Below are positions 24,447 to 26,883 of a stretch of DNA of 30,643 nucleotides, piece by piece. The stretch's first letter is position 1, and each line of letters opens with the position of its first letter. Made by a program: the position numbers and the translations under genes. Source of the stretch: an uncultured Gammaproteobacteria bacterium (GTDB lineage Bacteria; Patescibacteriota; Microgenomatia; UBA12405; JAHJSD01); the NCBI GenBank assembly GCA_964634805.1, contig CAZWLF010000001.1:1-30643 (forward strand), in the 5' to 3' direction. Below the pieces are notes generated by a model, which worked only from the letters and a program-made list of their open reading frames with translations, did not search any database and was not told the origin of the DNA.

Positions 24447-24677
24447 ATGAGCAAATTATCCTGCGGGACTGGGCTACAGAAAAATATCATAGATAAGGAG
24501 GTGTTCAAAAGAGAGCTTGCTCTGTGTCATAAACTGTCTCGGGAGAATGGCGGTAAATGTTGTTGGGGAGTCTGCGAAAGTTGTGGGGTGATACCGTTTC
24601 TTTACAAATTACACAAGGGTGTGTTGCTTGAGGACCCTGCTGAAATAAAAAAGGCAAAAAATAAAGTAGTGAAATAA
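24447..24677 (+). CDS. Small Cys-rich hypothetical protein
   Basis: Strong SD AGGAGG; C-x10-CC-x3-C-x2-C cluster. Confidence 0.7.
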   Translation: MSKLSCGTGLQKNIIDKEVFKRELALCHKLSRENGGKCCWGVCESCGVIPFLYKLHKGVLLEDPAEIKKAKNKVVK

Positions 24678-24724
24678 AATTCATAGGTCGCAAATCGTTA
24701 CACTTATATCCACACCAGTATATC

Positions 24725-24757
24725 CACACCAGGTGTGGGATAGGTTGACACATCGGG
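24725..24757. repeat. 33-bp direct repeat, right copy
   Basis: Identical to 23531-23563. It overlaps a perfect 14-nt tandem duplication TATATCCACACCAG (24705-24732). Confidence 0.95.
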
Positions 24758-24789
24758 GTTGAAGCGATCCAGAATTGTGATGATCCTGC

Positions 24790-24819
24790 TTGAATTTAAG
24801 CTCCAACCTCCGTTATAAT
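24790..24819 (+). promoter_or_regulatory. Promoter of the T-box-aspS transcript
   Basis: TTGAAT-18-TATAAT. Confidence 0.75.
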
Positions 24820-24832
24820 ATCAATCGAGAAA

Positions 24833-25036
24833 AACAACGATCCTGTTTGTGACCCAGGGGAGTTGAAGGAAGAAACCCCGCATTCGGCGGGAAAGTAGAG
24901 CCTTCCGGGCGCGCCCGTAACAGCGTTAAACGAGTTCCGACGTTACGTCGGAAGAAGCAGGGTGGCACCGCGAACTCACCTAAATCCTCGCCCCTGTCAA
25001 TCAGTTTGTTCTGGTTGATATGGGCGAGGGTTTTTT
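24833..25036 (+). promoter_or_regulatory. T-box riboswitch (ultrashort Stem I, Asp specifier GAC) with intrinsic terminator
   Basis: K-turn Stem I with GAC at 24851-24853, Stem II with AGUA/GAA S-turn, Stem IIA/B, Stem III, T-box AGCAGGGUGGCACCGCG (24956-24972), and terminator CCUCGCCC/GGGCGAGG followed by U6. Confidence 0.92.
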
Positions 25037-25077
25037 ATTGGGCCAAAATTTGTTAAAGTTTAACTAAGGAGTAAAAA

Positions 25078-26883
25078 ATGAAACGAACACTGATAAAAGA
25101 CACCGTTTCACGTGTTGGTGGAAAAGTGGCAATCTCCGGCTGGGTAAATAGTGTCCGGAGTCATGGCAAATTAGCTTTTGCTGATATCCGGGATAGGTCT
25201 GGAATGATTCAGGTAGTCGGGGGAAAAGAAATTGCCAAACTGAATCCGGAATTTGTAGTCGGAATTGAAGGTTTAGTTAAGAAAAGAGAAGAAAAATATT
25301 TTAACCCGAAGATAATTACCGGAGAAATCGAGCTCGAGGTTGAGAAGTTAGCCATTTTAGCGGAAGCAAAAGACCTTCCTTTTGATATTCACCAACCCAG
25401 TTTGGATGTTTCTTTGCCTATTTTGTTAGACTATCGGGCCGCTTCATTAAGAAACAAGAAAATCGCTGACATTTTCCGGGTTCAGTCCACTATTGTCAAG
25501 GCTTTCAGGAAGCACATGGTGGACAATGGCTTTACCGAATTCCAAGCACCGACAATTGTTGCCACCGCCACTGAAGGCGGCTCGCAGGTTTTCCCGATTG
25601 ATTATTTTGGCTACAAAGCCTATTTAGCCCAAAGCCCTCAGTTTTATAAACAGATCATGGTTTCTGTCTTTGAACGGGTTTTCACTCTGGCCCATGCTTA
25701 TCGGGCAGAGCCGAGTGTTACTACCAGACACATGACTGAATATGTTGGTATGGATGTTGAGATGGGTTTTATCGACAGCTGGTTGGACGTAGTTGAAACC
25801 GCAGATAAATTAGTCAAAGCGATTTTTGCCGAAATAGAAAAAGAACATCCAGATGTTTTAGCAAATTTTGGCACAACTATCCCTAAAACAGTAGAGGAAA
25901 CGCCGAGAGTAAAATTGTCCGAAGCCCAAGAAATAATTTTCAAAAGGACAGGCCGGGATATTAGGGGGGAGCCGGACATGGACCCGGAAGGAGAAAGGGA
26001 AATTTGCCGCTGGGCGGAAGAAGAACACGGCAGTGAGTTAGTTTTCATCAGCCATTATCCAACCAAGAAAAGACCTTGGTATACCTACCAGGATTTGGAA
26101 AACCCGGAAGAAACTTTGAGTTTCGATCTGATCGGCCGAGGAGTGGAGTGGATCACCGGCGGCCAAAGAATCAATGATTTTAATGTTCTTTCCGCTAATA
26201 TTAAAAAAATGGGCGCCAATCCGGAAGATTTTGAAATTCCATATTTACAGGCGTTTCGTTATGGCATGCCCCCCGAGGGCGGTTTTTGCTTAGGGCTGGA
26301 GAGAGTCACTCAAAATATTTTGGGCTTGTCCAATATCAGGGAAGCAACTCTTTACCCCAGGGATTTAGAGCGGGTCGATGCCAGACTTTCGACCATCGGC
26401 CAAAAACCCGGTGAAGAAACCAAAAGCCTTTTCGCCGAATTGGTTGACCTTCTTGCGGATAACAATATTAATTACCAGCTTTGTAATCACAAACCGGTTT
26501 ATACCAGCCAGGAAGCGGCTGAAGCCAGGGGAACCAAATTGGAGCAAGGGGCCAAGGCTCTGATCATGTTTGCTGACAAAAAGCCGGTTTTAATTGTCAT
26601 TTCCGCCGCTTATGAAGTTAATCTTGAAAAGCTGAAAAAATTGCTGAAAGTTAAAAAGCTAAAAATGGCCAGCGCTTCCGAGGTGGAGCAAATATCCGGA
26701 ACTAAAATCGGCGCTGTTCCGCCCTTCGGCAGTTTAATCGGGCTGAAAACATGGGTTGATAAAAGTTTGGCGGAGAATAAACAAATCGCTTTTAACGCCG
26801 GATTGCATACTAAGTCAATTATCATCAGTTATGACGATTGGCTTAAACTGGTCGAGCCGGAAAAAGCGGACTTTTCTTCCTAA
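25078..26883 (+). CDS. aspS: Archaeal-type aspartate-tRNA ligase (probably non-discriminating) fused to a C-terminal YbaK/ProXp domain
   Basis: OB-fold, YLAQSPQFYKQ, AYRAE..RH..EY, GGQRI, GMPP.GG..LGLER and YPRD. The last ~155 aa carry QGAKAL, GAVPPFG and IAFNAG. Confidence 0.93.
   Translation: MKRTLIKDTVSRVGGKVAISGWVNSVRSHGKLAFADIRDRSGMIQVVGGKEIAKLNPEFVVGIEGLVKKREEKYFNPKIITGEIELEVEKLAILAEAKDLPFDIHQPSLDVSLPILLDYRAASLRNKKIADIFRVQSTIVKAFRKHMVDNGFTEFQAPTIVATATEGGSQVFPIDYFGYKAYLAQSPQFYKQIMVSVFERVFTLAHAYRAEPSVTTRHMTEYVGMDVEMGFIDSWLDVVETADKLVKAIFAEIEKEHPDVLANFGTTIPKTVEETPRVKLSEAQEIIFKRTGRDIRGEPDMDPEGEREICRWAEEEHGSELVFISHYPTKKRPWYTYQDLENPEETLSFDLIGRGVEWITGGQRINDFNVLSANIKKMGANPEDFEIPYLQAFRYGMPPEGGFCLGLERVTQNILGLSNIREATLYPRDLERVDARLSTIGQKPGEETKSLFAELVDLLADNNINYQLCNHKPVYTSQEAAEARGTKLEQGAKALIMFADKKPVLIVISAAYEVNLEKLKKLLKVKKLKMASASEVEQISGTKIGAVPPFGSLIGLKTWVDKSLAENKQIAFNAGLHTKSIIISYDDWLKLVEPEKADFSS

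Follow-up and report, generated by a model that had tools for sequence, protein, structure and literature searches.

A candidate Asp-specific T-box with an ultrashort Stem I and an intrinsic terminator upstream of aspS in a CPR genome

Introduction

How could a T-box that has almost no Stem I be coupled to the termination of transcription? Of the switches in which one RNA senses another, T-boxes are understood best, and the tenet is that terminator-coupled T-boxes need a long Stem I to catch the tRNA elbow before the polymerase reaches the terminator; on this tenet, an ultrashort Stem I is affordable only where control is slow, reversible, and translational, namely, for ileS in Actinobacteria. 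Ultrashort stems have been tied to translational control, with transcriptional T-boxes generally requiring the elbow platform (PMC7583486), and, according to a 2023 preprint, ileS is the gene regulated by every ultrashort T-box, the regulation being translational. The preliminary description of the DNA considered here, which took ultrashort T-boxes to be established as actinobacterial, ileS-specific, and translational, agrees with both sources.

The locus that raises this question lies in the window, i.e., the whole stretch of DNA that was analysed (30,643 nucleotides):

24833-25036, plus strand: structured leader of around 200 nt, upstream of the aspartyl-tRNA synthetase gene (aspS)

This leader is very probably a functional T-box riboswitch that couples the transcription of aspS to the charging state of tRNA-Asp, a reading that is based on sequence comparison and predicted structure. 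Moreover, the presence in one leader of a class II decoding module, a class I terminator platform, and Asp specificity is supported by the analysis set out below.

The Regulated Gene and Its Host

The gene downstream of the leader encodes a two-part protein:

25078..26883, plus strand: 601-codon ORF encoding an archaeal-type non-discriminating AspRS with a YbaK/ProX-type editing domain
Amino acids 1-433 of this ORF: AspRS part
Amino acids about 455-600 of this ORF: YbaK/ProX-type editing domain

The ORF scores 459 bits against NF003483 (aspartate--tRNA(Asn) ligase), which is above the curated cutoff of 353 bits, so that the non-discriminating type of AspRS, raised as a condition in the preliminary description, is what the gene encodes according to this family model. 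The domains recognised in the ORF are PF00152, PF01336, and PF04073, and for its C-terminal domain the nearest matches are PDB 3op6 and YbaK. The closest homologues of the AspRS come from the Microgenomates group of Patescibacteria (Woese-, Shapiro-, Roizman-, and Amesbacteria), which bears out the earlier suggestion of a CPR genome. The neighbouring genes in the window are ordinary chromosomal ones, namely, recA, rny, secDF, the gene for a CCA-adding enzyme, recJ, a gene for an HD hydrolase, dacA, and gltX.

Identity and 5' Boundary of the Leader

The search with a T-box model that had been proposed as a check gave a match of RF00230 to the leader with 44.9 bits and E=7.8e-9 in a permissive scan of 421 nt. 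The alignment spans model positions 1-219, with about 76 Stem I positions being replaced by 9 nt in the leader. This score is below the RF00230 gathering score of 93 bits, and no Rfam match was found at the gathering threshold in the entire window; the shortfall is attributed to the deletion of these ~76 Stem I positions of the model. The full leader folds better than all of 200 shuffles of it (z=-4.15 for the MFE fold), and each of the elements listed in the preliminary description was found at its claimed place when the coordinates were checked between 24833 and 25036 on the plus strand.

The 5' boundary of the leader is suggested by a promoter-like site:

24790..24819, plus strand: promoter-like site TTGAAT, 18-nt spacer, TATAAT (10/12 matches)

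The start of the transcript predicted from this site is at about 24826-24829, and the site itself ends 14 nt 5' of the K-turn with which the leader begins. The relative L081, the protein of which is 86% identical, has the same promoter hexamers with the same spacing as the window, and a -10-like element is present shortly before the K-turn in 12 of the 19 related leaders, with 9-21 nt between its end and the K-turn. In these leaders, as in the window, where the promoter-like site abuts the K-turn, a long Stem I could not be accommodated further upstream. A 51-aa ORF on the minus strand (24813-24968), which overlaps the leader, was treated as spurious.

Related Leaders and Conservation of Structure

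The comparison was based on 168 related aspS loci (166 of them distinct), of which 80 were taken from GTDB genomes, 80 from metagenomes, and 8 from contigs obtained via exact-protein look-ups. A covariance model built from 11 short-Stem-I leaders was then searched against all of the loci, and this search yielded, at E<0.001, 19 distinct short-Stem-I leaders including that of the window. The other short-Stem-I leaders score 31-55 bits against RF00230.

In the model-fitted alignment of the 19 leaders, 92.6% of the cells are paired as compared with 32-46% in slid controls, 28 of the 30 pairs change on both sides, and none of 500 shuffles reaches the observed pairing values. Since a model-fitted alignment favours the model, pairing was recounted on a plain MAFFT alignment, in which it is 88.6% as compared with 32-49% in slid controls. 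The free prediction by RNAalifold contains the C-stem of the K-turn, the short Stem I, both parts of Stem II, and the two antiterminator helices (A1 and A2, see below) around a 7-nt bulge. L081 retains every element, with base changes in the upper hairpin of Stem II and in Stem III that preserve pairing. These comparisons suggest that the leader of the window is one member of a class that extends across several CPR lineages rather than a lone oddity.

Stem I and the Specifier

The 5' part of the leader contains the following elements:

24833..24864, plus strand: ultrashort Stem I including the K-turn (Rfam alignment, covariation, RNAalifold)
24833-35 (AAC) and 24862-64 (GUU), plus strand: C-stem of the K-turn, which covaries
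24839-40 (GA) and 24860-61 (GA), plus strand: tandem GA/GA of the K-turn, with an AAC bulge (near-invariant columns)
24841-45 and 24855-59, plus strand: NC stem of Stem I, UCCUG/CAGGG, 5 bp
24846-54, plus strand: apical loop of Stem I, UUUGUGACC, 9 nt
24851..24853, plus strand: specifier GAC (Asp codon, complementary to the anticodon GUC), followed by C24854

The GA...GAG columns of Stem I are invariant or nearly so in the alignment of related leaders, all 8 of the 8 pairs in the Stem I region covary in both alignments, and the C-stem and Stem I were recovered de novo by RNAalifold. The double T-loop platform of a long Stem I is absent, as the 76 model positions correspond to a 9-nt loop. An ultrashort Stem I with its codon in the terminal loop and without T-loops, as put forward in the preliminary description, is thus what is found, both from the missing Rfam positions and from the promoter-like site directly upstream.

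The assignment of the specifier to Asp, also made in that description, holds up on two grounds: no triplet other than GAC is shared by 17 of the 19 loops, and the downstream gene encodes an AspRS. GAC occupies the same loop position in these 17 leaders, consistently toward the 3' side of the loop, and AAC is found there in the other two (L141 and L036). Examples of such loops in the relatives are CUGACA, UUGACA, AAGACA, AUGACAA, UAGACA, UAUGACG, UUGACG, and CUGACGA. T-boxes carry a conserved purine after the specifier codon (PMC7583486), whereas the base 3' of GAC in the window is C (C24854); of the 17 leaders with GAC, L081 and L079 likewise have C there, and the remaining 14 have A or G.

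Stem II, Stem IIA/B, and Stem III

Stem I is followed by the elements that, in other T-boxes, complete the decoding module:

24865..24905, plus strand: Stem II, with the lower helix GAAGG/CCUUC (Rfam alignment, covariation)
24872-74 and 24894-97, plus strand: S-turn of Stem II, GAA opposite AGUA
Within 24865-24905, plus strand: upper hairpin of Stem II, CCCGC-AUUCG-GCGGG
24906..24925, plus strand: Stem IIA hairpin CGGG-CGCG-CCCG and tail UAACAGCG (F-box-like CCCGUAA)
24928..24956, plus strand: Stem III with its flanking purines, AAACG (RRRxG)-AG-UUCCGACG-UUA-CGUCGGAA-G-AA
24935-53, plus strand: Stem III proper (inverted repeat, MFE structure, Rfam alignment)

In Stem II, alignment positions G40, A41, A42, A62, U64, A65, and A67 show little or no variation, and 10 of the 10 pairs change on both sides in the model-fitted and MAFFT alignments alike. 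The S-turn reported earlier is present, since GAA opposite AGUA aligns with the Stem II of Rfam and the pairs of this stem covary. The claim of a IIA/B element stands in part: the IIA hairpin covaries (95.5% paired in the model-fitted alignment), and the IIB pairing of CGC with GCG is possible in the leader of the window, but across 15 leaders the loop-to-tail helix of IIB is no better than in shuffles (70/500). Stem III, which had likewise been described, was found as an inverted repeat, in the MFE structure, and in the alignment to the Stem III of Rfam; the RRRxG ... AA purine motif that flanks it is the one defined in PMC7583486. L081 keeps Stem III with changed bases, and most of the other CPR members are without it.

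Antiterminator, Terminator, and Expression Platform

The 3' part of the leader and the region before the start codon contain the following:

24959..24995, plus strand: antiterminator (T-box sequence) AGGG-UGGCACC-GCGA...UCGC-CCCU (Rfam alignment, covariation)
Within 24959-24995, plus strand: helix A1 AGGG/CCCU and helix A2 GCGA/UCGC, with a 14-nt loop
24963-69, plus strand: 7-nt bulge UGGCACC
24985..25036, plus strand: intrinsic terminator, with arms at 24985-25004 and 25011-25030 and the loop UUUGUU (MFE, inverted-repeat search)
25031-36, plus strand: U6 run after the terminator
25066..25071, plus strand: Shine-Dalgarno sequence AAGGAG, 6 nt before the AUG (read from the sequence)

Pairing is complete (100%) in helices A1 and A2, which show compensatory changes among the relatives, and UGGC is found in 16 of the 19 leaders. 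G73 is the discriminator of bacterial tRNA-Asp and of bacterial tRNA-Asn and would fit the UGGC bulge. ARAGORN found no tRNA genes, either in the window or across the 26 related loci that were scanned.

Each arm of the terminator is 20 nt long, and the two 3' strands of the antiterminator (24988-24995) lie within the 5' arm. Since the terminator re-uses these strands, the two structures exclude each other; the predicted stability is -31.6 kcal/mol for the terminator versus -6.1 kcal/mol for the antiterminator. The mutually exclusive helices and the U6 run of the preliminary description are therefore confirmed by the overlap at 24988-24995, and its transcription-attenuating platform is borne out by the terminator hairpin followed by U6 and by the position of the Shine-Dalgarno sequence outside the T-box pairing. 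A simple terminator scanner missed the hairpin at 24985-25036, probably on account of its long stem with an internal mismatch, and the scanner's sole call, a minus-strand site inside Stem II, was judged to be spurious.

The Shine-Dalgarno sequence is located 30 nt downstream of the U-run, none of the T-box strands pairs with it, and the MFE fold shows no more than weak A-U pairing in the downstream region. Sequestration of this sequence was rejected for the window on this basis, and translational control is therefore unlikely there.

Distribution of the Leader and of Its Platforms

The terminator type, defined by a strong hairpin that re-uses the 3' strand of the antiterminator and is followed by a U-run, comprises 13 leaders: that of the window, L081, L008, L009, L021, L024, L036, L114, L124, L134, L141, L146, and L159. 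From record titles and homology, all 13 are apparently from CPR. In the two leaders from Actinomycetota (L068 and L079), CCUCCC pairs with GGGAGG beside the start codon and there is no U-run; these two and L070 (Parachlamydia) look SD-sequestering. This suggests that Actinomycetota, too, have Asp-specific T-boxes with a short Stem I, which take an SD-sequestering form. L010, L022, and L110 were left out of the platform classes. Among the Chloroflexota relatives of this aspS, the Asp T-boxes have a full-length Stem I and are found with either platform.

The leader has a patchy distribution around the gene itself. In the clade in which the AspRS has the same fusion-type organisation, L081, the 86%-identity relative, was the only one with a leader of the window type; no leader was found in the fusion-type relatives L085-87, L030, L102, L164-166, and L168, and a derivative of the leader without the UGGN bulge is present in L001, L084, and L167. 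Since most of the close relatives of the gene are without the leader, the regulation is dispensable.

Proposed Mechanism and Alternative Readings

In the decoding module of the ileS T-boxes, the codon loop of Stem I is clamped laterally by the S-turn of Stem II, while the K-turn and IIA/B position these elements (PMC7583486). A similar arrangement may be proposed here. Transcription would start a few bases upstream of 24833, and the nascent RNA would fold into the K-turn, the 5-bp Stem I carrying GAC at its apex, and Stem II, the S-turn of which would be docked beside the loop. The Stem I loop and the S-turn would then clamp the GUC anticodon of tRNA-Asp; there would be no contact with the tRNA elbow, because the distal platform of Stem I is missing. 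If the tRNA-Asp were uncharged, its 3'-GCCA would pair with UGGC in the bulge, and Stem III would stack on and stabilise the weak antiterminator (-6 kcal/mol), such that RNA polymerase would read into aspS. If the tRNA were aminoacylated or absent, the terminator (-32 kcal/mol) would capture the 3' strands of the antiterminator and transcription would stop at U6. We infer tRNA binding, the discrimination of charge, and read-through from the elements described above. According to the kinetic argument, co-transcriptional T-boxes need an elbow-binding platform for the timely capture of tRNA (PMC7583486), from which it follows that a short Stem I joined to a terminator could be inefficient or depend on assistance.

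An important question is whether tRNA-Asp would be the only ligand. The T-box might sense both substrates of a non-discriminating enzyme, tRNA-Asp(GUC) with a perfect match and tRNA-Asn(GUU) via a G-U wobble pair at codon position 1, with both tRNAs presenting G73 to UGGC. The enzyme is of the tRNA(Asn)-charging type, AAC occupies the same loop position in the CPR leaders L141 and L036, which precede an enzyme of the same kind, and a partial induction of a T-box by the non-cognate tRNA-Asn has reportedly been observed (PMC2916919). However, specifier and anticodon form three Watson-Crick pairs in T-boxes (PMC7583486), a mismatched 3-bp helix without an elbow contact should bind very weakly, and GAC and AAC have been retained separately, in different lineages, instead of as one ambiguous signal, so the sensing of both tRNAs is considered improbable. 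A specifier other than GAC would change the ligand altogether. The 9-nt loop also contains GUG (Val, then A) and UGU (Cys), and GUG-A obeys the rule of a purine after the codon, which GAC-C does not. However, neither triplet recurs in the other leaders, for whose loops GAC is the sole shared triplet; the regulated gene encodes an AspRS; GUG violates the C at the third specifier position; and UGGC implies G73, which fits tRNA-Asp, whereas in E. coli tRNA-Val has A73 and tRNA-Cys U73. GUG and UGU were rejected as specifiers on the comparison with the other loops, and another triplet now has hardly any claim to the role.

Even if the ligand is tRNA-Asp alone, as preferred here, control by that tRNA could have been lost or could act at a different level. 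The patchiness of the leader among close relatives, the derivatives without the UGGN bulge (L001, L084, and L167), and the non-purine after the codon would all be expected of a decaying or non-regulatory T-box remnant, which would now serve in constitutive attenuation or as an RNA stability hairpin. That the leader is such a remnant is, all the same, decidedly improbable: all of the functional elements are intact and are conserved at 86% protein identity with changes that preserve pairing, and an unrelieved terminator of -32 kcal/mol before what is apparently aspS would be strongly deleterious. As regards level, a short Stem I has so far been linked to translational control (PMC7583486; 2023 preprint), and the leaders L068, L079, and L070 seem to sequester their Shine-Dalgarno sequences, so control of translation instead of, or besides, that of transcription might be envisaged; it is very hard to reconcile, though, with the position of the Shine-Dalgarno sequence at 25066-71 and with a hairpin followed by U6 that has the classic form of an intrinsic terminator. 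The reading of the leader as a transcriptional, tRNA-Asp-responsive T-box is therefore the one retained below.

Relation to Known T-Boxes

The actinobacterial class II ileS T-boxes (M. tuberculosis, M. smegmatis, and Nocardia farcinica), of which the structures PDB 6UFG and 6UFM are available (PMC7583486), share with the leader of the window a short K-turn stem, a specifier in the apical loop, and the lack of a double T-loop elbow platform; they also share the S-turn of Stem II, Stem III, the UGGN-ACC bulge, and, beside Stem I, a IIA/B element, which is a candidate one in the window. They differ from it in the specifier and gene (AUC and ileS, as opposed to GAC and aspS), in the platform (SD sequestration, as opposed to an intrinsic terminator with U6), and in the host (Actinobacteria, as opposed to CPR), and the window has C rather than a purine after the codon.

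The canonical class I T-boxes (RF00230), which include those of the Chloroflexota aspS loci L046, L048, L053, and L062, have the same logic and the same 3' half, that is, Stem II, a IIA/B region (of which IIB is a candidate in the window), Stem III, and a UGGC antiterminator that competes with a terminator and U-run. The Asp T-boxes of Chloroflexota also share with the window the GAC specifier and the family of the regulated gene. In class I, however, Stem I is around 90 nt long, with an AGAGA specifier-loop motif and elbow-binding distal loops, whereas the window is without about 76 of the model positions. Another T-box that is naturally reduced and transcriptional is that of glyQS in Bacillus and Geobacillus (PMC7583486), but there the reduction is the opposite one, with Stem II and IIA/B lost and the long Stem I kept.

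The class II model of TBDB was built from ileS leaders, and it was searched only in Actinobacteria and in the sequences already found by the Rfam model; with 31-55 bits as compared with a gathering score of 93, none of the short-Stem-I leaders would therefore enter TBDB. More generally, the lack of an Rfam match at the gathering threshold and these low scores in the relatives imply that standard Rfam-based annotation misses elements of this kind. The combination of a short Stem I with a terminator was not found described in the papers through 2023 that were searched, the one on TBDB among them, and no link of T-boxes with CPR was found in that search, although an earlier mention of short-Stem-I aspS leaders is possible.

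The basic mechanism would be familiar, with the combination of classes, the Asp specificity, and the CPR host probably constituting the new part. A broader proposition is that CPR carry uncatalogued T-boxes that terminate transcription without an elbow platform, many of them without Stem III or even Stem II, on a scaffold that can be switched between GAC and AAC and that has given rise to bulge-less derivatives; the chances of this being correct are about even. If it is, the co-transcriptional sensing of tRNA would need no fast-capture module. A conserved family with both an ultrashort Stem I and a strong terminator is a natural test case for the kinetic argument. The class of leaders would extend T-boxes into CPR, where it could mark how reduced genomes regulate the supply of aminoacyl-tRNA, notably via the Asp/Asn transamidation route. 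On the practical side, such leaders would be compact tRNA-responsive transcriptional switches of around 200 nt.

The same proposition bears on the two leaders with AAC in the loop (L141 and L036). The genes that they precede also score as non-discriminating AspRS, and these CPR relatives may monitor tRNA-Asn instead. As AAC sits at exactly the loop position of GAC, a single point mutation, from G to A, would switch the scaffold between the two tRNA substrates of a non-discriminating AspRS. A precedent for such AAC loops is the Asn T-box of Clostridium acetobutylicum, which, in work attributed to Saad et al. (2012), reportedly controls tRNA-dependent asparagine formation. This T-box belongs to the indirect transamidation route to Asn-tRNA(Asn), a pathway that includes a non-discriminating AspRS; it differs from the window in that it comes from a Firmicute and presumably has a long Stem I, and in that the window reads GAC rather than AAC.

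The Aspartyl-tRNA Synthetase and Its Editing Domain

A non-discriminating AspRS deliberately mischarges tRNA-Asn. In the window, this enzyme is joined to a C-terminal editing domain:

Window, aa about 455–600 (roughly 26440–26880): YbaK/ProX-type aminoacyl-tRNA editing domain (PF04073), C-terminal part of the AspRS encoded at 25078–26883

The nearest solved structures to this domain are 3op6, which is uncharacterised, and the YbaK Cys-tRNA(Pro) deacylase. Among the top 120 homologues, which without exception come from the CPR, the majority carry the fusion, while some have no editing domain and are 443–472 aa long; no description of the fusion was found in the literature searched. In L166, one of the related aspS loci gathered for comparison, a further class II synthetase gene of the Asp/Asn type (positions 1–683, 437 aa) ends 18 nt upstream of the fusion-type aspS, such that two paralogous synthetases lie in tandem.

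Asn Specifiers

In two related loci, the apical loop position held elsewhere by GAC (Asp) carries AAC (Asn):

L141:691–825: AAC short-Stem-I terminator-type T-box
L036:540–655: AAC short-Stem-I terminator-type T-box

The genes downstream of both T-boxes score as non-discriminating AspRS, and in L036 a 233-aa ORF of unknown identity precedes the synthetase gene. Since an AAC specifier lies upstream of such enzymes, it appears from these sequences that tRNA-Asn charging is monitored for non-discriminating AspRS in some CPR lineages.

Reduction and Absence of the Bulge

The CPR short-Stem-I class shows further reduction, two arrangements being the following:

L114:834–944: reduced T-box without Stem II, Stem I running directly into IIA
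L009:1364–1445: reduced T-box without Stem II and without recognisable IIA

Reduction also occurs in L008, L021, L024, L124, and L159. Stem III has been called indispensable for binding the tRNA 3' end (PMC7583486), yet it is absent from most CPR members of the class.

The UGGN-ACC bulge is absent from the leaders of three fusion-type aspS relatives:

L001:1321–1500: bulge-less leader
L084:177–418: bulge-less leader
L167:577–700: bulge-less leader

The three share a base resembling a K-turn, a short Stem I whose loop contains AAC-A, an S-turn in Stem II, and the IIA hairpin. In place of the bulge, there is a GUGUGUCG...CGGAGCAC hairpin in L084 and L167, and UCGCC...GGUGG in L001. A terminator and U-run follow in L001 and L084; the hairpin of L167 overlies a GGAG situated 11 nt upstream of the AUG. 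These leaders may be a T-box derivative in which acceptor-end sensing has been lost.

aspS T-Boxes Outside the CPR

Short-Stem-I GAC T-boxes also occur under other labels:

L068:1347–1469: Actinomycetota, SD-sequestering helix, upstream of aspS
L079:548–671: Actinomycetota, SD-sequestering helix, upstream of aspS
L070:1316–1476: MAG labelled Parachlamydia sp., adjoining the aspS start

The actinobacterial translational T-boxes are said to regulate only ileS, whereas those of L068 and L079 precede aspS; by their predicted structure, they are Asp-specific members of that class. The L070 T-box scores 52.8 bits with Rfam and has the bulge UGGA, and its hairpin is apparently SD-sequestering. None of the 10 Chlamydiae genomes covered by an early survey yielded a T-box (PMC2494555).

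Two nearly identical leaders with a long Stem I contain two or three GGUGGNACC T-box cores in tandem, which look like tandem discriminator domains:

L074:340–530: tandem cores upstream of aspS, labelled Candidatus Sulfomarinibacteraceae
L077:1300–1490: tandem cores upstream of aspS, labelled Chloroflexota

Sequences Upstream of the T-Box

Three features precede or overlap the window's T-box:

24447–24677: 76-aa ORF, flanked by the HD hydrolase gene on one side and the T-box promoter on the other
24705–24740: tandem repeat TATATCCACACCAG (twice), palindrome CCACACC-AG-GTGTGG, then GGTTGACAC, just 5' of the promoter
24746–24764 and 24850–24868: 19-nt direct repeat, 79% identity, copies about 100 nt apart

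The ORF has no Pfam match; L081–L083 have a called gene, also of 76 aa, at the equivalent position. Similar palindromes (TCACACACCCGGTGTGTGA) occupy the position matching 24705–24740 in L081. The element in the window may bind a protein, or it may mark where the upstream transcript ends. The downstream copy of the direct repeat (TGACCCAGGGGAGTTGAAG) covers the 3' half of Stem I and runs into the beginning of Stem II, the upstream copy being TGACACATCGGGGTTGAAG; the pair may be a duplication remnant or due to chance. GATCCTG-TTG is found again at the -35 region of the T-box promoter.
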